A DNA stretch of 32,000 nucleotides, taken from Patescibacteria group bacterium (GTDB lineage: Bacteria; Patescibacteriota; Minisyncoccia; RBG-13-40-8-A). Below are positions 6,872 through 29,899 of this stretch, piece by piece. The position numbers and the translations under genes were made by a program. The notes under the pieces were generated by a model. The model did no database searches and was not told the DNA's origin. It worked only from the letters and a program-made list of their open reading frames with translations. Within the stretch, counting starts at the first letter, position 1; each line of letters begins with the position of its first letter. The stretch lies in contig JBMORO010000040.1 of NCBI GenBank assembly GCA_049322295.1, forward strand, positions 33,960-65,959, written 5' to 3'.

Positions 6872-7477
6872 TTAAATTGAACTTATTTCTACTAAACTAC
6901 CATTGGGACCAGGCACGGCTCCGGTAATGGCTAGCAGGTTATTTTTATCATCAACTAAGGCGATTTTTAAATTTCTTATCGTGACCCCTCTCCCACCAGT
7001 TCGACCAGGCATTCTTTTTCCTTTGATTACCCTTTCGGGAAAAGAGGTACCAATCGAGCCCGGTCTCCTTAAAACATGACGGTGGCCGTGCGAAGCCGGA
7101 CCACCGGAAAATCTATGTCTTTTAACTACGCCCTGAAATCCTTTTCCTTTTGAAGTGCCAGAAACCTTAATCTTGTCTCCCTCGGTAAAGATTGAAACCC
7201 CAATTTTGTCTCCTTTTTTAAAATCATACTTTTCTCCCTCTCTTATTCTGAATTCTTTTATGTATTTGAATGGTTTATCTTTTTGAGGTTTTTTTATCTT
7301 ATCTAATTTTAATTCCTCAAAACCAATTTGAACTGCTGAATAACCGTCTTTTTCTTTCTCTTTAATTTGGGTAACAAAACAAGGGCCGGCTCCGATAACA
7401 GTTACCGGAATAATATTTCCCCTCTTATCGAAAATCTGCGACATCCCAAGTTTTTTACCTAAGATAAATTTCATCAT
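6872..7477 (-). CDS. rplC: 50S ribosomal protein L3
   Basis: 201 aa with the L3 signature GKGFQGVVKRHRFSGGPASHG. Confidence 0.97.
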   Translation of the reverse strand: MMKFILGKKLGMSQIFDKRGNIIPVTVIGAGPCFVTQIKEKEKDGYSAVQIGFEELKLDKIKKPQKDKPFKYIKEFRIREGEKYDFKKGDKIGVSIFTEGDKIKVSGTSKGKGFQGVVKRHRFSGGPASHGHRHVLRRPGSIGTSFPERVIKGKRMPGRTGGRGVTIRNLKIALVDDKNNLLAITGAVPGPNGSLVEISSI

Positions 7478-7480
7478 AAT

Positions 7481-7630
7481 GTCTACAAATTTACAAATAA
7501 ATACAAATATACAAATTAAATACCGGGCACTACCCGGTATTTAATACGGCTAGAGTTATCCCTTTGGTTTAAAAACTTTTGGGAAAAATAATCATATTTG
7601 TACATTTGTAAAAAATTTGTACTTTTGTAG
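7481..7630. repeat. Family B AT-rich palindrome, copy B1 (split arms with a 76-bp central insert)
   Basis: The left arm is GTCTACAAATTTACAAATAAATACAAATATACAAATT (7481-7517). The right arm is ATATTTGTACATTTGTAAAAAATTTGTACTTTTGTAG (7594-7630). The centre carries the hairpin AAATACCGGG-CACTA-CCCGGTATTT (7518-7542). Confidence 0.7.
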
Positions 7631-7635
7631 AGAAA

Positions 7636-7977
7636 TTAGATTTTAATTTCTATGTCGACGCCAGCGGGCAGGTTCAAATTCATTAAGGCATCAATAATCT
7701 TTGAATTCGGATTAGAAATATCAATCAAGCGCTTATGGGTCCTCATCTCAAACTGCTCTCGGGAGTCTTTATGAACAAAAGTAGAACGATTAACTGTAAA
7801 TTTTTGAATCTGAGTTGGCAGAGGAACTGGACCAATTACCTCGGCGCCATAACGCTCAGCCGTCTCAATAATCTGACGGGCTGACTGGTCAACAATTTTA
7901 TGATCGAAAGCCTTAATTTTAATTCTCAAACGTTGTTTTATCTCTGGCTCAGCTTCGACTTCTTTCTTCTTTACCAC
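7636..7977 (-). CDS. rpsJ: 30S ribosomal protein S10
   Basis: 113 aa with a GTG start. [41 protein letters not shown] is an S10 signature. Confidence 0.97.
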
Positions 7978-7984
7978 AATGCTT

Positions 7985-8053
7985 GTCTACAAAAATACAA
8001 ATTTTTACAAATATACAAATTTGTAAATTTGTATATTTTTGTAATTTTGTAGC
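7985..8053. repeat. Family B AT-rich palindrome, copy B2 (tuf stop to rpsJ start)
   Basis: GTCTACAAAAATACAAATTTTTACAAATATACAAATTTGTAAATTTGTATATTTTTGTAATTTTGTAGC is an imperfect palindrome centred on ACAAATTTGT. It abuts the tuf TAG (8054-8056) and ends 7 nt before the rpsJ GTG. Confidence 0.75.
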
Positions 8054-9250
8054 CTATTTGATAATTTTAGTTACCACTCCAGCTCCAACTGTCTTGCCGC
8101 CTTCTCGAATAGCAAATCTTTGTTTTTCTTCCAGAGCAACCGGATTAATTAATTTAATGGTCAACTTAACTGTGTCACCGGGCATAACCATTTCTGCCCC
8201 TTCGGGTAAGGCTACTATATCACCAGTTACATCAGTAGTTCGGATATAGAATTGGGGTTTATAACCCTTAAAGAATGGGGTATGACGGCCACCTTCTTCT
8301 TTACTTAAGATATAAACCTCTCCTTCAAAATCAGTATGGGGGGTAACACTTCCTGGTTTAGCAATGACTTGTCCTCTTTCTACATCTTCTTTCTTTAACC
8401 CTCTTAAAAGAATACCGGCATTATCACCAGCCATGCCTTCATCTAATGATTTATTAAACATCTCAATACCTGTAACTACTGTCTTCTGGGTGGGTCTTAT
8501 ACCAACAACTTCAACTTCTTCATTTAGTTTAATAACCCCCCTTTCAATCTTTCCAGTAACTACTGTTCCTCGCCCTTCAATTGAGAAAATATCCTCAATT
8601 GGCATTAAAAATAGCTTATCGGTTTCTCTTTTGGGTTCGGGAATATACTCATCTATTGCTTTAACCAACTCAAAAACGCATTTAGCATCTTCGGAATCTG
8701 GAGAATCAGCTTCTAAGGCCTTTAAAGCCGAGCCTCTTATTACTGGAATCTTGTCGCCAGGGAATTCATATTTGGTTAAAAGCTCTCTTACCTCGGCTTC
8801 AACTAAATCAATCAACTCTGGATCATCAACTTGGTCAATTTTACTAAGAAAAACAACTATTGCCGGTACACCGACCTGACGAGCTAACAAAATATGCTCC
8901 CGGGTTTGGGGCATTGGACCATCAGCAGCTGAAACAACTAAGATTGCTCCGTCCATTTGAGCAGCTCCGGTAATCATATTTTTAATGTAATCAGCATGGC
9001 CAGGAGCATCGATATGGGCGTAGTGCCTCTTTTCGGTCTCATATTCAACATGAGCCAAGGCAATAGTAATACCTCGCTCTCTTTCTTCAGGAGCATTATC
9101 AATATCATCTACCCCTTTTTTAGAGGCCAGAAAACCCTTTGCTCCTAACTGCTTTAGAATAGCTGCAGTTAAGGTTGTTTTACCGTGGTCAACATGACCA
9201 ATTGTCCCAACATTAATGTGAGGTTTTGTTCGTTCAAATTTTTCAGCCAT
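8054..9250 (-). CDS. tuf: Elongation factor Tu
   Basis: 398 aa starting [31 protein letters not shown], with the DAPGHADY and NKxD-equivalent regions. Confidence 0.99.
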
Positions 9251-11536: not shown

Positions 11537-12007
11537 TTACCAAGCAAAATGGGCGAAGGCGCGATTGGCTTCGGCTATTCGGTGGGTTTCTTCTTTCTTT
11601 TTAACTGCCTCACCAGTATTATTAAAGGCATCAACTAATTCTTTGGCTAATTTTTCTGCCATTGATTTACCTTTTTTCTTTCGCGCTGCTTCAATAATCC
11701 AGCGCATGGCTAAAGCCTCTCTCCTTTTTCCTTTAACTTCGTAAGGAACCTGATAATTAGCTCCTCCTACTCTTCGCGATTTTACTTCTAATAAAGGAGA
11801 GGTATTTTTTATTGCCTCTTCTAAAATTTCTAAAGGATTATCTTTTTTTAGTTGTTTAGCTACTAAATCTAAAGCAGTATAAAAAATATTCTGAGCTATT
11901 GATTTTTTTCCTCTTTCCATTAGATTATTAATAAATTTAGCCACCAAAACACTATTATATTTGGAGTCAGGATTTGTTTCTGTTTTGAATGTTTTCTTTT
12001 TACGCAT
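11537..12007 (-). CDS. rpsG: 30S ribosomal protein S7
   Basis: [43 protein letters not shown] from ATG at 12007. The track extension MTEGN is leader read-through. Confidence 0.96.
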
Positions 12008-12043
12008 GTTCCCTTCGGTCAAAATAAAATATTAAATATAAAA
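12008..12043 (-). promoter_or_regulatory. Conserved translation-initiation leader motif (rpsG copy)
   Basis: Minus-sense TTTTATATTTAATATTTTATTTTGACCGAAGGGAAC precedes the ATG. It is 34/36 identical to the rpsN copy at 1066-1101. Confidence 0.5.
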
Positions 12044-12056
12044 GATAAAGTACTTT

Positions 12057-12545
12057 TTATTTTTTATTTTCCTCCTTGCCTTCTGGTTCGGTCGGCTTTT
12101 CTCCCTCTTCCACTGATGCTTCTCTTTTTATACCCACCTCTCCTTTCTTAGCTCCGTATTTTGATCTTTGTTGTTTCCGACCTTCCACTCCAGCTGTATC
12201 TAAGATTCCTCTAACAACATGATAACGAACTCCTGGCAAATCTTTTACTCTACCCCCGCGGATAATTACAATTGAATGCTCTTGCAAATTATGACCTTCA
12301 CCAGGAATATAAGCAGTTACTTCCATACCATTAGTTAATCTTACCCGAGCAACTTTTCTTAAAGCTGAATTTGGCTTTTTGGGAGTAGTAGTATAAACCT
12401 TTAAACAAACTCCTCGTTTAAAGGGAGAATACTCTTTAACTGGTCTGTTCTTGAGAACATTAAAACTTCGGCGAAGAGCCGGGACTTTCGCTTTTTTAGC
12501 TGTTTTCTTTCTTGGCCTTTTAATTAGTTGACGAATTGTTGGCAT
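12057..12545 (-). CDS. rpsL: 30S ribosomal protein S12 (with ~30 aa acidic/Lys C-terminal extension)
   Basis: [14 protein letters not shown]...[37 protein letters not shown] from ATG at 12545. The tail is ...[20 protein letters not shown]. Confidence 0.97.
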
Positions 12546-12620
12546 GTTCCTTTCAGTCAAATTAAAAATTAAAAAATAAAAATTTAAAAATAAACCTCAA
12601 ATTTATTGAGCTTAATAAAA

Positions 12621-16688: not shown

Positions 16689-16700
16689 AGGGCTACTAAA

Positions 16701-19002: not shown

Positions 19003-20202
19003 CTATCTCATTTCTCCTAACACAGCCTTAACTACAATCTCTTTATCATCCCTTAAAATCTTCAAATTAACCTTATCACCTGGTCTGTGTTTAGAAATTA
19101 ATTTTGCTAAAGTATTATTCTCATTTATTCTTGTTCCATTTAGCTCCAAAATAATATCCCCTTCTTTAATACCAGCTTTATCAGCTGCGCTATCGGGAAC
19201 AATGGCTGGCTCATCTGGATTGTCTCCTCTGCTAATAAGGGCCCCGTAATCAACTGGCAATTTATTGCTCTCAGCAATTGCTTTGTTAACTAAAATATAG
19301 CGAACACCTAAAAATGCATAAATTATCCTCCCTTTAGTTTCAATATCAGCGATATCTCTCTTTACTTTATTTATAGGAATAGCAAAACCAATATTTTCTG
19401 CTTCGGTAGCTACAGCTGTATTCATCCCAATCACTTCCCCATAAAGATTTAAAAGCGGACCACCGGAATTACCCGGATTAATTGCCGCGTCAGTTTGAAT
19501 TATATCTTCTAATTGTTCACTGATTCCGCCTCCACTGGCTGTTATTGTCCGCAAAAGTCCAGAAATTATGCCAGAACTTACTGTGTTTCTAAATTGACCT
19601 AAGGCATTGCCAATAGCAATTACGGTTTGACCAATCTCTAAATTATCAGAATCACCTAATTTAACCACTGGAAGATTAGATGCCTCTATTTTAACAATAC
19701 CAATATCTTGAACTGGGTCACGAGCTAAAATTGTGGCCTTATACCTATTTCCATCATTGGTTAAAACCGTATATTCCGCCTCATCATCTAAAACCACATG
19801 TTTGTTAGTAGCTATTAAGCCATTAGAAGAAACGATGAAACCTGTGCCCGCTCCTACTTCTCTTAATTCTTTTCCTTTTTCCTGAATTATAGGAATTCTG
19901 ATATCAAAAGGACTATTTTCGCCAAAAGGATTATAATAACCCTGTTCATAAACAGGCACATATTTACTAATAATAATACTTACCACTGCTGGCGAAGCTT
20001 CTTTTACAACCTGGGGAATGGTTTCTGGCAGTTGAACCTGTTTTTCTTTTGATAATTCTTTATATAATAACTGACCAAAATAAACCGAGGGGATTAAACC
20101 GCCAAGCAAACCAAAAATAAAAGAGACAATAATAATCCAAAAAATAGGTTTCTTTAAAAACCTAAATTTTAAATCTGATCTATAAAAATAAAATGACTTC
20201 AC
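19003..20202 (-). CDS. htrA: HtrA/DegP-family serine protease (trypsin-like domain plus PDZ)
   Basis: It has an N-terminal TM, the catalytic regions TNKHVV, D and GNSGGPLLN, and a C-terminal PDZ domain (GIKEGDIILELNG). The maximal ORF reaches an ATG at 20223 inside element A3. I favour GTG at 20202 (MKSFYFYRSD...), as explained in the findings. Confidence 0.92.
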   Translation of the reverse strand: MKSFYFYRSDLKFRFLKKPIFWIIIVSFIFGLLGGLIPSVYFGQLLYKELSKEKQVQLPETIPQVVKEASPAVVSIIISKYVPVYEQGYYNPFGENSPFDIRIPIIQEKGKELREVGAGTGFIVSSNGLIATNKHVVLDDEAEYTVLTNDGNRYKATILARDPVQDIGIVKIEASNLPVVKLGDSDNLEIGQTVIAIGNALGQFRNTVSSGIISGLLRTITASGGGISEQLEDIIQTDAAINPGNSGGPLLNLYGEVIGMNTAVATEAENIGFAIPINKVKRDIADIETKGRIIYAFLGVRYILVNKAIAESNKLPVDYGALISRGDNPDEPAIVPDSAADKAGIKEGDIILELNGTRINENNTLAKLISKHRPGDKVNLKILRDDKEIVVKAVLGEMR

Positions 20203-20341
20203 CCCGTACCGAAACTTCGACATTTATACATCGAACATCGAGGTCTCTAAAATTAATAATTATTGTATATCAATTATTTTATTCTTGCCCCCGTACTTTC
20301 GTCCCGACTAAAGTCGGGGCAGTCGAAGTTCTGGTACGGGG
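20202..20341 (-). mobile_element. Family A MITE-like element, copy 3 (140 bp) between the last minor pilin stop and the htrA start
   Basis: TIRs are CCCCGTACCGAAACTTCGAC (20202-20221) and GTCGAAGTTCTGGTACGGGG (20322-20341). Direct TTCA repeats lie at 20198-20201 and 20342-20345. Confidence 0.7.
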
Positions 20342-20347
20342 TTCATC

Positions 20348-23087: not shown

Positions 23088-23114
23088 ATTTTAAAAATTA
23101 GCTTAACACTCTAC

Positions 23115-23137
23115 TCCTCCGACTTAACGTCGGAGGA
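23115..23137 (-). terminator. GC-rich stem-loop 3' of the major pilin gene (attenuator or mRNA stabiliser; no clear U-tract)
   Basis: TCCTCCGAC-TTAAC-GTCGGAGGA forms a 9-bp perfect stem 23 nt after the pilin stop. Confidence 0.4.
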
Positions 23138-23159
23138 ATCTGACTATTAGGCTAAATTT

Positions 23160-23687: not shown

Positions 23688-24896
23688 TCACAATCCAGAA
23701 GCAATGTTATAAATGGGCATTAAAATAGCTGAAACCAAAAATCCTACACCCGCTCCTAAAATCAAAATCATAAATGGCTCAATCAACTGGGTCATATTAG
23801 CCACTGTCCTATCAACCTCTTGCTGATAAAAAATGGCTATCTTTTCCAGAATCATATCTAATTCAGCGGTCTTTTCTCCAACCCCAATCATCTGAGTAAC
23901 CATGGGGGTTATTTGCTTGGGATAATTAGAAAAAGCTGAGTTAATGGTCTTGCCAGCCCTTACCTGTTCTTTGGCTTCATTAATTATCTTCTCGTAGATT
24001 TTATTGCCAATTACTGTTGCGGTAATCTCTAAAGCTCTTAAAATGGGAATTCCTCCTATTAAAAGGGTTTTAAAATTTTCAGATAAACGCGTTAAATATA
24101 TTTTTTGAAAAAGTGATTTAAAAACCGGGATTTTTAATTTAATAATGTCTAAAACCAAACGTCCTTTTTCTGTTCTTACTAATCTAATTATGATAATTAC
24201 TAAAACGATGACTATTAAAGCAACTAACCAAAACCAAGACCTTAACAATTTACTAGTGCCAATTAAAATCCTAGTAGTAATAGGCAATTTCTGACCTATT
24301 TCTTCTAACATTGAAGCCAACTGAGGAACAACGTAAATCATCATCAAAATAGCTACTACAATGAATAGACTTAAAATTACGGCTGGATAAGTAAAGGCTC
24401 CTCTTACTTTAAAATTTAAATTATACTCCCTTTCAGCGTGGTCAGCTAGATACCGCAGGATTTCGTGAAGTTTCCCAGTTGCCTCACCCGCTTTAACTAC
24501 ATTTATATAAAAAGCAGAAAAAATCTTAGGATGTTTAGCCATGGCTGAAGATAGAGTTTCACCACCCTTGATATCTCTTTCGATATCAAAGATTAATTCC
24601 TTAAAAAGAGGATTTCTGGCCTGTTCTCCTAAAATTTTTAAAGAATCTAAAGGAGAAACGTTGGCTTCAAAAAGAATAGCTAATTGACGATAAAAAATTG
24701 TCAGTTCCTTTGCTTTTATTCTTTGGAAAATTCTTAAAGAACGAGTATAAAAGGGAACCTCAGCCAATTCCTCCAGAAAAACTACTACCAAATCATAGCG
24801 CTGAAGCGTTTCAATGGCCGCTTCTCGGCTCCCGGCTTCTACTACGCCGGTTTGAATTCTACCATCTTTGGTTCTGGCTTGATAATTAAATCTCAC
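23688..24896 (-). CDS. pilC: Type IV pilus platform protein PilC (GspF family)
   Basis: 402 aa with two GspF repeats and 3 TM segments, located in the pilT/pilB context. Confidence 0.93.
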   Translation of the reverse strand: MRFNYQARTKDGRIQTGVVEAGSREAAIETLQRYDLVVVFLEELAEVPFYTRSLRIFQRIKAKELTIFYRQLAILFEANVSPLDSLKILGEQARNPLFKELIFDIERDIKGGETLSSAMAKHPKIFSAFYINVVKAGEATGKLHEILRYLADHAEREYNLNFKVRGAFTYPAVILSLFIVVAILMMIYVVPQLASMLEEIGQKLPITTRILIGTSKLLRSWFWLVALIVIVLVIIIIRLVRTEKGRLVLDIIKLKIPVFKSLFQKIYLTRLSENFKTLLIGGIPILRALEITATVIGNKIYEKIINEAKEQVRAGKTINSAFSNYPKQITPMVTQMIGVGEKTAELDMILEKIAIFYQQEVDRTVANMTQLIEPFMILILGAGVGFLVSAILMPIYNIASGL

Positions 24897-24903
24897 AAAA
24901 TTT

Positions 24904-24971
24904 GTCTACGAATTACAAATTCCTTACGAATTTACGAATTTGTATATTTGTAGAAATTTGTATTTCGTAGT
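24904..24971. repeat. Family B palindrome, copy B3 (pilT stop to pilC start)
   Basis: GTCTACGAATTACAAATTCCTTACGAATTTACGAATTTGTATATTTGTAGAAATTTGTATTTCGTAGT abuts the pilT TAG and ends 7 nt before the pilC start. Confidence 0.75.
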
Positions 24972-26045
24972 CTATTTGCCTAATAGCATCCTTAAATCAG
25001 ATGGGCTTAATGAATATATCTCAGCGTTTTCTAATGAAATTTCTCCTTTATGAACCAAATCAGCCAAGGACCTGTTTAAAGAAATCATTCCCTCTTCTGT
25101 ACTCGTCTCGATAACTAAATCTATTTGATAAATTTTTCCTTCTCTAATTAAATTCCGGACAGCTGAGTTTGCTATCATTACTTCTACAGCCGGGATTCTG
25201 CCTCCGTTTACTTGAGGAACTAAACGTTGAGAAACAACACCTAAAAGGGTAGCGGCTAATTGAGCCCGAACCTGATTTTTGGCCTCAGCGGGAAAACTAT
25301 CAATTATTCTATCAATGGTTTGGGGGGCATTATTGGTATGAAGGGTGGCTAAGACCAAATGACCGGTTTCAGCAGCAGTTAAAGCTGTGGAGATTGTCTC
25401 TAAATCCCTCATTTCTCCTACCATTATTACATCAGGGTCTTGACGAAGAGCTGAACGCAAAGCCCGGGCAAAGCTTTTGGTATCATTTCCTACTTCTCTC
25501 TGGTCAATAATACTTTTGTCCTGGTCAAAAATATATTCAATAGGATCCTCGATAGTGACAACATGTTTGGCAAAATGATGGTTTATATAATCAATTAAAG
25601 CAGCTAAAGTAGTTGTTTTGCCATGACCAGTGGGACCAACTACTAAGAAAAAACCTTGGGAATGGGAAGCAAATTTTTCAACAATAGATGGTAGGTTAAG
25701 TTCTTTAACTGTTCTTATCTTTGGGGGGAGAAAACGCAAAGCAGCAGAGAGATATCCGCGTTGGAAAAAAACATTCACCCGAAAGCGAGCTTTTTCTTTA
25801 TAACTATAAGAAAAATCAATTTCCTTATCCGTAAAAAGTTTCTGCTTTTGTTCTTCGGAAAGAAGGGCATAAATTAAACCAGCAGTATGTTCACTGGTTA
25901 AAACTGGATATTTTGTTAACTCTGTTAGTTTGCCATCAATTCTGATAGCTGGTCGCTTGCCCACTGTAAAGTGAAGGTCAGAAGCATTATGTTTGCCTAC
26001 TATTTCTAAAAATTCTTCTAACTCTATTTGATAATTGTTTTTCAT
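24972..26045 (-). CDS. pilT: Twitching-motility retraction ATPase PilT
   Basis: 357 aa with ASDLHFTVGKRPAIRIDGKL, Walker A GPTGHGKTT, DPDVIMVGEMRD and ETGHLVLATLHTN. Confidence 0.93.
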   Translation of the reverse strand: MKNNYQIELEEFLEIVGKHNASDLHFTVGKRPAIRIDGKLTELTKYPVLTSEHTAGLIYALLSEEQKQKLFTDKEIDFSYSYKEKARFRVNVFFQRGYLSAALRFLPPKIRTVKELNLPSIVEKFASHSQGFFLVVGPTGHGKTTTLAALIDYINHHFAKHVVTIEDPIEYIFDQDKSIIDQREVGNDTKSFARALRSALRQDPDVIMVGEMRDLETISTALTAAETGHLVLATLHTNNAPQTIDRIIDSFPAEAKNQVRAQLAATLLGVVSQRLVPQVNGGRIPAVEVMIANSAVRNLIREGKIYQIDLVIETSTEEGMISLNRSLADLVHKGEISLENAEIYSLSPSDLRMLLGK

Positions 26046-26047
26046 AA

Positions 26048-26112
26048 GTTCTACGAATTACGAATTAGTACGAATATACGAATGTCTCCAAAAAAAATTG
26101 TAATCTTGTAGC
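26048..26112. repeat. Family B palindrome, copy B4 (degenerate; pilin stop to pilT start)
   Basis: GTTCTACGAATTACGAATTAGTACGAATATACGAATG...TTGTAATCTTGTAGC. The left arm is intact and the right arm is eroded. Confidence 0.55.
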
Positions 26113-26578: not shown

Positions 26579-28310
26579 CCTCTTTCTTTACCTCTTCCAA
26601 ACCAACTAATCCTCGTAAGGCCTTTAAAATCCCGTCCTGAAGCATAGTTAGCATTTCTTGCCTTCGGGCTTCTTTTTTAATATTGGCTTCTGATGGTTCC
26701 TTTAGAATAATTTCCTCCAATTCTGGAGTCATTTCTAACATCTCAAAAATAGCTATTCTTCCCTTGGTTCCTTTGGGACATTCTTTGGATATCCGCGGTT
26801 CGTAAAGAACGTAGGGTTCTTTAATATTGGCTTTTCTTAACTGATCTGGTGGAATATTGCTTAATTCTTTTTTAATTAAATTTAGCATTTCTGGCGAAGG
26901 TTTTATTTCTCGCCTGCTGTGGGGACAAAGTCTCTGAACTAACCGCTGGGCTATGGCTAAAATCAGAGTAGGAGGAATTAAATATCGGTCAATGCCCATA
27001 TCAATTAAACGAGGAATTACACCTAAGGCATCATTGGTATGAAGGGTAGAAAGAACTAAATGGCCAGTTAAAGCAGCGTGAACAGCCAAGGCCGCAGTTT
27101 CATTATCTCGAATCTCACCAACCATAATTTTGTCTGGATCTTGACGTAGAATATGTCTCAATCCAGTAGCAAAAGTATAGCCAATCTCTGGTCGAACTTG
27201 GGACTGATTTATTCCCTCAATATAATACTCAATTGGGTCCTCTAAACTAACAATATTAACTCCTTCTTCGTTCAAAATATGCATAATACTATAAAGAGTG
27301 GTAGTCTTTCCTGAGCCAGTTGGGCCGGTCAATAGAATCAAACCATGAGGCTTCTTAATAGTATTTTTTAAAACTTCTAAATTCCGGCTCTCTAAACCCA
27401 AATCAGATAAATCTCTCAAGCCAACCGTAGGATCCAAAATCCTCATTACTACTTTTTCTCCGGTATAAGTGGGAAAAGTGGAAATTCGAAAATCAATTTT
27501 TTTCTTACCGCTTTGGGTAAAAAATCTACCATCCTGAGGTTTCCTAGTCTCATCAATTTTCAAATGGGAAAGTATCTTAACTCTAGAAACAATAGCTGGA
27601 TGGATACGAATGGGAAGAGTTAGGTTGGTATATAAAATTCCATCAATTCTAAAACGGACTCTAATCGACTTTTCACTGGGTTCAATATGAATATCCGAGG
27701 CATTTTCTTCAATGGCGTGTTTAATAATTAGGGCAACAACCTTACTAATTGGTGCCTCTTCGGCTATCTTCTCTATCTTTTCTTTTTCGACAACTTTAAC
27801 CCCCTTTTTTTCTTCCTTCTCTAATTCCTCTTTTAACTCTTCTAAGGCTTCCTTTATCTCTCCTCTTAAAGTGGAGTATTCTTTAAGAATGTTTCTAAAA
27901 TCAGTAAGAGTTATAATATATGGTTTGGGAGTAAGATTATGGCGATGGGCAATAAATTTTAAAGCCTCACCAGCATCGATGTCCTCTGGATTAAGCATCC
28001 CAATCTCTAGAATCATTTTTTTCTTATCAACATTAATAGGAACAAAACGATAATGCTGAGCTGCTTCTAAGGGAACCAACTTTAAAATTTCTGCCCCTGC
28101 TTTGTAGCCAGCCAAATCTTTAAAAGGAATTTTTAAAAGTTCTCCTTTTAGTTGGTATAACTTTTCTTCAGGGACTAATCCTCTCTCTACAAGTAACTCT
28201 TCTATATTTCTATTATCTTTCTCGGCCTCTTCCTTAATATTATCTAAAGTTACTGGGTCAATTAGCTTTTTATTTACTAAAACATCTAAAAGATTTTTTT
28301 GTTTAGCCAC
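26568..28310 (-). CDS. pilB: Type IV pilus assembly ATPase PilB (GspE family)
   Basis: 580 aa with a GTG start, an N-terminal GSPII_E_N-like domain, GPTGSGKTTTLY, DPDKIMVGEIRD and LTGHLVLSTLHTNDA. Confidence 0.95.
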   Translation of the reverse strand: MAKQKNLLDVLVNKKLIDPVTLDNIKEEAEKDNRNIEELLVERGLVPEEKLYQLKGELLKIPFKDLAGYKAGAEILKLVPLEAAQHYRFVPINVDKKKMILEIGMLNPEDIDAGEALKFIAHRHNLTPKPYIITLTDFRNILKEYSTLRGEIKEALEELKEELEKEEKKGVKVVEKEKIEKIAEEAPISKVVALIIKHAIEENASDIHIEPSEKSIRVRFRIDGILYTNLTLPIRIHPAIVSRVKILSHLKIDETRKPQDGRFFTQSGKKKIDFRISTFPTYTGEKVVMRILDPTVGLRDLSDLGLESRNLEVLKNTIKKPHGLILLTGPTGSGKTTTLYSIMHILNEEGVNIVSLEDPIEYYIEGINQSQVRPEIGYTFATGLRHILRQDPDKIMVGEIRDNETAALAVHAALTGHLVLSTLHTNDALGVIPRLIDMGIDRYLIPPTLILAIAQRLVQRLCPHSRREIKPSPEMLNLIKKELSNIPPDQLRKANIKEPYVLYEPRISKECPKGTKGRIAIFEMLEMTPELEEIILKEPSEANIKKEARRQEMLTMLQDGILKALRGLVGLEEVKKEVEE

Positions 28311-28315
28311 AAGAT

Positions 28316-28384
28316 GTCTACAAAACTACAAATAATTACGAATATACAAATTTGTATATTTGTAGAAATTTGTATTTCGTAGCC
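28316..28384. repeat. Family B palindrome, copy B5
   Basis: GTCTACAAAACTACAAATAATTACGAATATACAAATTTGTATATTTGTAGAAATTTGTATTTCGTAGCC abuts the TAA at 28385 and ends 5 nt before the pilB GTG. Confidence 0.75.
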
Positions 28385-28702
28385 TTAATAAGGTATAAAA
28401 GGGTTTTCCCGACCAGTGGTTCCTTTTTTCACCGGTATATTGCCGTGAATCTTCAAAAATGATAAAATCTTCTGATTTAAAAACTCAAAATCTAAATTAA
28501 TCCTTTTCAATTTTTCTTCTAAGATAGCTGGCAATTGTTCTCCTTCGCCTTCAGGAGAGACTGGCTGAGATTCCGGAGGAACAACTTTTTCTTTTTTCCA
28601 AAAACCAAAATATAAAACCAAACCAGTGATTGCAAAAATAACCAGGGCTACAATTAATAAAATCTGCTGACGCTTTCTTTGTTCCAGGGATTTAATGGGC
28701 AT
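28385..28702 (-). CDS. Small single-pass membrane protein of the pilus operon (PilP-like position; family not recognised)
   Basis: 105 aa with one TM segment (ILLIVALVIFAITGLVLYFGF), a Pro/Glu linker and a C-terminal ...GRENPFIPY. It sits between pilO and pilB. Confidence 0.6.
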   Translation of the reverse strand: MPIKSLEQRKRQQILLIVALVIFAITGLVLYFGFWKKEKVVPPESQPVSPEGEGEQLPAILEEKLKRINLDFEFLNQKILSFLKIHGNIPVKKGTTGRENPFIPY

Positions 28703-29829: not shown

Positions 29830-29899
29830 GTCTACAAAATTACAAATTAGTACGAATTTACAAATTTGTATATTTGTAAAAAATTTGTATTTTGTAGCC
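29830..29899. repeat. Family B palindrome, copy B6 (pilM stop to pilN start)
   Basis: GTCTACAAAATTACAAATTAGTACGAATTTACAAATTTGTATATTTGTAAAAAATTTGTATTTTGTAGCC. The proximal flank AAGATG-GTCTACAAAA is identical to that of B5. Confidence 0.75.

Follow-up and report, generated by a model that had tools for sequence, protein, structure and literature searches.

A 32,000-nucleotide stretch of a Patescibacteria group bacterium (contig JBMORO010000040.1, positions 33,960 to 65,959; hereafter the window) carries ribosomal and pilus operons whose genes are repeatedly separated by copies of one palindromic element, family B. The element is built of heptads of the form TAC(A/G)AA(A/T): each arm holds four, with starts spaced 8, 10 and 8 nt, and the second arm repeats the first in inverted orientation. 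In the tuf/rpsJ gap, an intact copy at 7985-8053 consists of four TACAAA(A/T) heptads followed by four inverted ones, with a predicted folding energy of -21.7 kcal/mol (z = -4.8) and a covariance-model score of 63 bits. The tuf stop codon (TAG, 8054-8056, minus strand) adjoins one end of this copy, and the GTG start codon of rpsJ (7975-7977) lies 10 nt from the other. Three further intact copies are found in the pilus region: at 24904-24971, between the stop codon of pilT (TAG, 24972-24974) and the start codon of pilC (GTG, 24894-24896; -23 kcal/mol, 78 bits); at 28316-28384, between the stop codon of a 105-residue open reading frame (ORF105; TAA, 28385-28387) and the start codon of pilB (GTG, 28308-28310; -22.2 kcal/mol, 75 bits); and at 29830-29899, in the pilM/pilN gap (70-74 bits). 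A split copy occupies 7481-7630 in the rpsJ/rplC gap: between its arms (7484-7516 and 7596-7629) lie 81 nt of inserted sequence with a terminator-like GC hairpin (7515-7545, sense strand minus, AAATACCGGG...CCCGGTATTT), and the whole is predicted to fold at -52.4 kcal/mol (z = -8.7). Finally, a half-decayed copy at 26048-26112 in the pilin/pilT gap keeps four TACGAAT heptads (26052-26083) in one arm, the other being eroded, and scores 22 bits. All six copies that the original prediction had placed in the window are therefore present, and its description of two inverted four-heptad arms holds for the four intact copies and the split one but not for the copy at 26048-26112, which keeps one arm only. 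A repeat finder recovers the same copies as families D1, D2 and D4 and as palindromes I10 (the tuf/rpsJ copy) and I11, and the intact copies score 59-78 bits overall.

All six copies lie between two minus-strand open reading frames and none lies inside a coding sequence, as had been claimed. The fit to the neighboring codons is close: 2-10 nt separate the upstream stop codon from the element (31 nt on the eroded side of the pilin/pilT copy), and at the other end the downstream start codon follows after 6-10 nt. The copies share the flanks (A)AATAG(G/A)CTAC...GTAGAC, and in tuf and pilT the last Lys codon and the stop codon are themselves supplied by the element flank AAATAG. Among the genes that follow a copy in the window, three of six start with GTG (rpsJ, 7975-7977; pilC, 24894-24896; pilB, 28308-28310), as compared with 1 of 34 other genes. 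A general link to non-ATG starts was rejected, as across loci these account for 16% of element-led genes and 24-27% of others. The idea that the element replaces a Shine-Dalgarno sequence was likewise discarded: the window genome is poor in Shine-Dalgarno sequences throughout, so that their absence after the element is not special, and in lineages that use them the sequence simply follows the element.

The repeat is far above chance expectation. Its core pattern matches eight times in the window and not once in 100 dinucleotide shuffles, and a heptad-pair pattern matches 18 times as compared with 0.57 +/- 0.82 in shuffles, which answers the concern, raised in the original prediction, that shuffled controls might give similar matches. 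The AT-rich composition of the window (~35% GC) would favor a reading of family B as ordinary low-complexity sequence that matches by chance, but this reading is contradicted by the shuffle counts, by the occurrence of the identical architecture in genomes of up to 62% GC and by covariance-model scores that reach 60-86 bits. A chance origin is thus refuted and effectively excluded; the observation is real. Whichever strand is folded, the predicted energy of the intact copies is -18 to -25 kcal/mol (z = -4.3 to -6), and the copy at 26048-26112 folds no better than its shuffles (z = +0.3).

The same architecture is widespread in the Patescibacteria, or candidate phyla radiation (CPR). In its general form, an arm CTACGAAT-TACGAAT-n3/4-TACGAAT-n-TACGAAT meets an arm TCGTA-n-ATTCGTA-n3/4-ATTCGTA-ATTCGTAG, and this arrangement recurs in at least 137 loci with GC contents of 31-62%, nearly all of them labeled Patescibacteria or derived from CPR-rich metagenomes. 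More than 130 loci outside the window were found in this way, where a repeat confined to the window had been named as the contrary outcome. A scan with the strict core pattern over one genome per species (185,579 species) gave 17 loci labeled Parcubacteria, Falkowbacteria, Uhrbacteria, Roizmanbacteria, Patescibacteria or Saccharibacteria, the exceptions being three contigs (two bins) labeled Gammaproteobacteria (labels as deposited), and a metagenome scan gave at least 120 loci, mostly from groundwater and sediment samples. A viral origin was rejected, as viral contigs gave no match to the pattern. The consensus heptad across this range is TACGAAT, of which the window lineage carries an A/T-shifted variant, and full copies stand out as AT-rich islands in contigs of 58-62% GC. 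A covariance model (R1), of the kind that the original prediction had called for, gives copies scores of 60-86 bits and picks out ~70 sites across 491 kb of these loci, a density that is biased because these loci were chosen for carrying the element. In Rfam, only a tRNA reaches the gathering score, and an E-value threshold adds only sub-threshold models of AU-rich miRNA hairpins; the literature searched on CPR repeats and palindromes and on the core sequence holds no description of family B. Family B is accordingly a CPR-wide repeat, restricted to Patescibacteria and not described in Rfam or the searched literature. It belongs to a known kind, the dispersed intergenic palindromic repeats; what is new is the family itself, its construction as a heptad array, its intercistronic specificity and its conservation across the superphylum.

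Across the loci, the element is concentrated in stop-to-start gaps. Raw counts place it in 81 of 644 co-directional junctions (12.6%), 5 of 55 divergent ones (9.1%) and 6 of 75 convergent ones (8.0%). However, of the eleven convergent or divergent exceptions, at least five were shown by Pfam and open reading frame checks to be mis-called (the junctions are really trx, rpsC/rplP, rpmJ(?)/rpsM and, twice, rplN/rplX), and the reading of unbiased placement suggested by the raw counts was dropped once they were corrected. The corrected values are ~86/649 co-directional junctions (~13%) and ~6/125 convergent and divergent junctions (~5%; Fisher p = 0.006), with genuine exceptions in a convergent gap of locus L060 and a divergent gap of locus L082. 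No copy lies within any credible coding sequence in any of the loci, and copies stay more than 150 nt away from all 33 tRNA genes of the loci. The residual spacer beside the element has a median of 18 nt, as compared with 139 nt for random length-weighted insertion; element-free co-directional gaps have a median of 39 nt. On the stop side the most frequent distance is 2-4 nt (typically 2-7 nt), and on the start side it is 7-10 nt. A target role for the TAA or TAG stop codon itself was considered and set aside, the count of 14/31 as compared with 7/31 on the mirror side being suggestive but not decisive.

The same junctions are occupied again and again. The pilB/pilT and pilT/pilC junctions recur most often (10 upstream ATPases and 6 downstream PilC), followed by rplN/rplX (5), rpsH/rplF (4) and rplJ/rplL (3), counts that partly include near-identical contigs from different samples. 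Further recurrent sites are tuf/rpsJ, ftsA/ftsZ and the gaps upstream of efp, mreB, gap, ssb and rnhA. The pilT/pilC junction is occupied not only in the window but also in loci L004, L023, L091, L104 and L131. The original prediction had remarked that the copy at 7985-8053 takes the place of an S10-operon leader; this is correct as to position, but the same element precedes dozens of unrelated genes. Taken together, the preference for stop-to-start gaps over tRNA flanks and convergent gaps, the tight codon distances and the deep retention of junctions indicate that the transcribed hairpin matters. It would do so either as the reason why the element is tolerated at junctions or as its function.

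One explanation consistent with this placement is a host cis-regulatory mRNA hairpin, selected for itself, that acts in translational coupling or as RNase III or exonuclease punctuation and spreads by duplication and gene conversion only. In such a scheme, the heptads would be read by an RNA-binding protein or a nuclease, and the ribosome would melt the stem base to expose the start region. The preference for stop-to-start junctions, the avoidance of tRNA flanks, the tight geometry (modes of 2-4 nt on the stop side and 7-10 nt on the start side) and the occupation of the same junctions in very distant lineages all agree with this explanation. So does the observation that intercistronic hairpins of unrelated sequence show the same stop-hairpin-start geometry (Family A, rpsQ/rplN and pilin/pilD, described below, and hairpins in other loci). 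It is also favored by covariation limited to the base of the stem, the part on which a terminating ribosome would act, and by the toleration of apical insertions. In contrast, the helices are conserved in sequence rather than covarying, the fourth heptad position and the 1-nt spacers are often mismatched, and genuine copies occur in convergent (L060) and divergent (L082) gaps. This explanation is possible but rather unlikely, for reasons that become clearer from the pattern of constraint within the element.

In alignments of the copies, all eight heptads are nearly fixed at positions 1-3 and 5-7 and free at position 4 (G > A > T), and this holds as well for the outer heptads, on which the search pattern imposes nothing. 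The inner 1-nt spacers pair below chance (34/74, with 41 expected) and show no covariation, and the 3-4-nt spacers are anti-complementary (0.11, as compared with 0.30 with shuffled partners; 9 of 2000 shuffles are as low, and shared ancestry may contribute). The start-proximal 3-4-nt spacer is rich in A (51%). Covariation is confined to the base of the stem, over its terminal 2-4 bp: pair 12-81 is UA in 61 rows, AU in 11 and CG in 1, pair 11-82 is CG in 54 and UA in 10, and at two flanking pairs that are not conserved, 46 of 74 rows pair, with all four Watson-Crick types, where 28 are expected (relatedness of the sequences inflates such counts). The claim that sequence is conserved, and not only structure, is thereby borne out. 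The ~30-bp RNA hairpin of the original prediction, in turn, forms in silico, but no sign of selection for pairing on the mRNA strand is seen in its heptads. On that strand, G.U-type pairs (39) are not favored over A.C-type mismatches (58), and the mRNA-strand fold is surpassed in stability by the antisense fold at 38 of the 55 junctions (mean difference 1.7 kcal/mol; Wilcoxon p = 0.0016), a bias that is not observed for unrelated intercistronic hairpins. The weaker mRNA fold and the unfavored G.U pairs both count against an mRNA element selected for itself, as does the fact that one RNA-binding protein cannot read UACNAAU plus its complement. On the plus strand of the window, TACGAAT occurs ten times in left arms and ATTCGTA not once in right arms, an asymmetric pattern of transitions for which the usual replication and transcription deamination biases gave no explanation. 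As a signal of antisense structure, this asymmetry was rejected for not being general (GT 14 and AC 18 in the metagenome set), although the weaker antisense-fold bias persists.

The combination of eight identical sites, each free at its central base, with unconstrained spacers and an unoptimized mRNA fold is the pattern that sequence-specific protein recognition leaves. Judging from the sequence, the simplest form of such recognition would be one in which the same heptad is read on both strands of duplex DNA. The explanation that takes this pattern at face value is a duplex-DNA operator or roadblock array, in which eight TAC-N-AAT sites would be bound by a conserved global regulator or nucleoid protein, much as ribbon-helix-helix proteins bind heptad arrays, with effects on read-through between cistrons or on chromosome organization. 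It agrees with the pair of fixed triplets that flank a free base, with the identity of the sites on the two strands and, in the metagenome set, with mismatch types that show no strand preference; the direct and inverted heptad runs at 7-8-bp spacing resemble the operators of the omega repressor. However, the distance between the arms ranges from 0 to 103 bp, the flanking bases covary, several unit types occur within one contig, copies homogenize within genomes and turn over between relatives, and there is no evident reason why an operator would avoid convergent gaps and tRNA flanks. An operator array alone is therefore regarded as improbable. Inter-arm distances of 0, 11-18, 56 or 81-103 nt are observed, a variability of the sort seen in transposon ends or in stems, and the split design with an enclosed GC hairpin is also found at rpsJ/rplC in locus L025, a close relative (hairpin at ~6520-6545), and in locus L035, from a different lineage (hairpin at ~7065-7085). 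At this junction, the hairpin in the loop may be an attenuator or a ribosomal-protein binding site.

A promoter, possibly bidirectional, or an intrinsic terminator is far less probable still, and both are effectively excluded. The TAnATT found at each GTA-n-ATT junction is similar to a -10 box, the A-rich start-proximal spacer lies at the distance expected of a transcription start, and one copy occupies the expected place of the S10 operon promoter. Yet the consensus TTCGTA comes with neither a -35 box nor an extended -10 box, a sigma-70 scan flags none of the intact copies (with counts in the pilus region only modestly above shuffles), and there is neither the enrichment in divergent gaps expected of a promoter nor that in convergent gaps expected of a terminator. 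The stem, furthermore, is AU-rich and has no U tract, the only terminator-like feature flagged by a scan is the GC hairpin inside the split copy, and the element sits inside tight operons such as rplN/rplX and rpsH/rplF. Three specific promoter forms (a Bacteroidetes-type TAnnTTTG, TTGTAT-N16-TAATTT and a central TAnATT -10 box) were rejected on the basis of the consensus, the scan and the junction classes.

The element is also gained, lost and copied. Spacers and flanks are common to the copies of a contig but vary from one lineage to another (for example, ATGAGC..AGCA..CACA..TATCAGC in locus L051), and the same is true of the window lineage. A further sign of copying is that a public assembly of the same organism (locus L001, described below) breaks within copies. 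Relatives at ~70-77% nucleotide identity differ by the presence, absence or remnant of a copy. At pilM/pilN, which is occupied in the window, locus L104 reads TAA-TTTT-ATG, the insert being CAAAATAGG plus the palindrome plus ACATC. At nrdD/nrdG, a full copy is present in locus L042, and the window keeps only TTTAGTAGCC in a 12-nt gap (16691-16700, minus strand); because the relative has a full copy there, this one-heptad stretch is probably the remnant of a lost copy. At rplN/rplX, a copy is present in loci L028, L017, L117 and L120, and the junction is empty in the window and in loci L064, L098, L045 and L025. In addition, the copies at L056 2415-2494 and L028 8719-8796 are near-identical except upstream of the inner heptads, the outer distal heptads of the former being replaced by GC-rich sequence, a difference that suggests a rearrangement breakpoint inside the element. 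The homogeneity within genomes, the presence and absence between relatives, the variable inter-arm distance and the covarying termini together constitute the behavior of a dispersed, copied repeat.

The explanation that best accommodates these observations, and which is held tentatively, at somewhat below an even chance, is that family B is a CPR-wide, non-autonomous dispersed palindrome, akin to REPINs and to miniature inverted-repeat transposable elements (MITEs), whose heptads are recognized by a protein and which persists in operons through its hairpin. In this proposal, the heptads would be recognition sites for a conserved trans-acting protein, and the presence of the same site on both duplex strands would account for eight identical sites in two-fold symmetry. 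The protein would copy or maintain the element, which in turn would persist at junctions because its transcript folds into a hairpin of ~30 bp. As 2-7 nt lie between the stop codon and the base of this hairpin, and 7-10 nt between that base and the following start codon, the two codons would be kept adjacent: a terminating ribosome could open the base of the stem and so free the AU-rich 3′ arm for initiation. The hairpin might, more speculatively, additionally serve as an exonuclease barrier or as an RNase III target.

Several observations weigh against a mobile, protein-recognized palindrome of this kind. First, neither a trans-acting protein nor an autonomous element turned up in the loci. 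A phmmer search found no IS200/RAYT-like frame (RAYT, REP-associated tyrosine transposase; REP, repetitive extragenic palindrome) among 3,413 open reading frame pieces in ~0.93 Mb of loci, a weak negative, obtained with IS608 TnpA and E. coli RAYT sequences as queries. Split arms enclose no gene, and successive copies have housekeeping genes between them; inserts between arms reach 103 nt at most in loci that were selected through abutting arms, and no transposase is seen between arms or copies. Second, no target-site duplication is observed in the two comparisons of occupied and empty sites, pilM/pilN and nrdD/nrdG. Third, the pilT/pilC junction is occupied both in the window (35% GC) and in locus L091 (60% GC), whose PilC proteins are only 37% identical, which looks like long-term retention rather than mobility, and a selfish element would be expected to be most common in convergent gaps, where family B is depleted. 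Fourth, palindromes with other tandem units (ATAGAAT, TGCGAAT, GATTAAG and others) coexist in the same contigs, and a single sequence-specific protein does not explain several unit types per contig. Finally, position-4 pairing in the two inner heptads is somewhat above the shuffle expectation. A bolder proposal, that the TAC-N-AAT arrays are cis-sites of a Patescibacteria-specific protein (a nuclease, an RNA- or DNA-binding regulator or a domesticated recombinase) in a global operon-punctuation system, is considered doubtful. If true, this system would mark the stop-to-start junctions of ribosomal, pilus, division and housekeeping genes and set the relative expression of neighboring cistrons.

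Comparison with known systems places family B near several of them. As in the REP repeats, bacterial interspersed mosaic elements (BIMEs) and REPIN-RAYT systems of Enterobacteria and Pseudomonas, the repeats are short, extragenic, palindromic, non-coding and present in many copies, form inverted doublets that fold into a long hairpin, are homogenized within the genome, lack a target-site duplication and carry GTAG at the element boundary. REP and BIME repeats can also sit between cistrons, where they affect mRNA stability, and family B is likewise intercistronic; its two inverted arms, which fold at -18 to -25 kcal/mol outside real coding sequences, are REPIN-like. In contrast to a REP unit, which is a short imperfect palindrome, each family-B arm is made of four direct heptads without an internal dyad. 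The GTAG of family B closes the 3′ end of each strand, whereas REP has a 5′ GT(A/G)G head. The heptad spans class-level lineages (Parcubacteria, Falkowbacteria, Uhrbacteria and Roizmanbacteria), unlike the species- or genus-specific REP, and the element is depleted in convergent gaps, unlike REP and BIME. Of the suggestion that family B is REP/BIME-like or a protein-recognition array, the dispersed, homogenized and gained-or-lost character therefore stands, but membership of REP/BIME is not supported: the arms are not small palindromes and species specificity is lacking. Terminal inverted repeats and covarying terminal bases are shared with MITEs, although a classical MITE, derived from a DDE transposon, would have a target-site duplication and family B has none.

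Enterobacterial repetitive intergenic consensus (ERIC) sequences, also called intergenic repeat units (IRUs), and Correia elements (NEMIS) are imperfect intergenic palindromes of ~70-150 bp that are likewise co-transcribed and form RNA hairpins, and they are reported to alter the stability and translation of neighboring cistrons. These elements are restricted to a genus or family and conserved along their whole length, with a TA duplication in the case of Correia, whereas in family B only the heptads are conserved, there is no duplication and the range is that of a superphylum. The intercistronic RNase III signals of phage T7 are also related hairpins between cistrons, with two helical segments and an internal loop, to which the unpaired 3-4-nt spacers would correspond. 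The predicted family-B fold is consistent with this shape (a helix of ~20 bp or more with an internal loop). Unlike the T7 signals, family B consists of heptad arrays whose mRNA strand lacks structural optimization. The operators of omega, a ribbon-helix-helix protein of inc18 plasmids, consist of 7-bp heptads that follow one another in direct or inverted orientation and are bound cooperatively by a single small protein; they serve as a working model for the reading of eight sites. The WATCACW heptads of omega are, however, contiguous and found at a few plasmid promoters, whereas those of family B are spaced at 7-8/10-11/8 bp in many chromosomal intercistronic copies.

Family B is not the only intercistronic hairpin of these genomes. 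In the window, a second repeat, Family A (~135-150 nt; 335-480, 4017-4165 and 20197-20345, sense strand minus), has terminal inverted repeats CCCCGTAC(T/C)AGAACTTCGAC...GTCGAAGTTTC(A/G)GTACGGGG and a predicted fold of -51 to -57 kcal/mol (z = -6 to -7), with a stem of ~23 bp that includes the downstream start codon (AUG), for example that of rpsC. The rpsQ/rplN gap (2381-2470, minus strand) holds a GC-richer hairpin, GCGACAC...GTGTCGC (-39 kcal/mol, z = -6.1), which ends 6 nt before the ATG of rplN. A hairpin in the gap between the major pilin gene and the prepilin peptidase gene pilD (23088-23159, minus strand) is kept in L104 at 551-636, where the outer stem TAATAGTCAGATTC...GAGTAGAGTGTTA is identical and the inner GC stem covaries. 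A leader of the form TTTTATATTTAATATTTTATTTTGAC(T/C)GAAGGGAA(C/T)ATG is found at 1055-1135, 11997-12077 and 12535-12615 (minus strand), upstream of rpsL, rpsG and a 66-residue open reading frame (880-1080); these are ribosomal-protein genes and among the few genes of the window with a Shine-Dalgarno-like GAAGGGAA.

In the CPR loci, co-directional gaps of 45-160 nt that are free of family B also tend to fold: 50% have z < -2 and 36% have z < -3, as compared with z < -2 in 33% of divergent and 59% of convergent gaps. Median distances of the dominant stem in these family-B-free gaps are 6 nt from the stop codon and 8 nt from the start codon (observed values, for the CPR loci alone). Many of these hairpins are three or four tandem units followed by their inverted image, with units such as ATAGAAT, TA(G/T)GAAT, TGCGAAT, GATTAAG, TAGCTT, GAAATTA, AACAT and TCGATAT. 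Several of the units have a GAAT core in common with family B, and a single contig can hold different types. Examples lie at L017 7398-7472 and 3338-3391, L083 1316-1403, L064 216-291, L098 4531-4604, L119 5050-5161 and L016 1457-1565. Together with these other stop-hairpin-start palindromes, family B suggests that CPR operons are organized by intercistronic hairpins.

Patescibacteria make up a large share of bacterial diversity and have tiny genomes with few recognizable regulators; to our knowledge, almost nothing is known about the control of their gene expression. Family B is a 66-nt element that occupies about one of every eight operon junctions in the contigs sampled and is retained at 31-62% GC. 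As such, it offers a direct handle on a putative conserved factor, for which a synthetic 66-mer could serve as bait, and a sequence marker for CPR DNA in metagenomes. It is also a likely cause of assembly breaks in metagenome-assembled CPR genomes: the 3.4-kb locus L001 (Logan contig SRR32167786_219054), the only public contig with the exact PilB of the window, ends on both sides within family-B copies, and for this reason the repeats probably fragment CPR assemblies. Were family B only a selfish repeat, it would still be the first repeat family documented across this superphylum. Beyond this, it points to a shared way of punctuating operons in the CPR.

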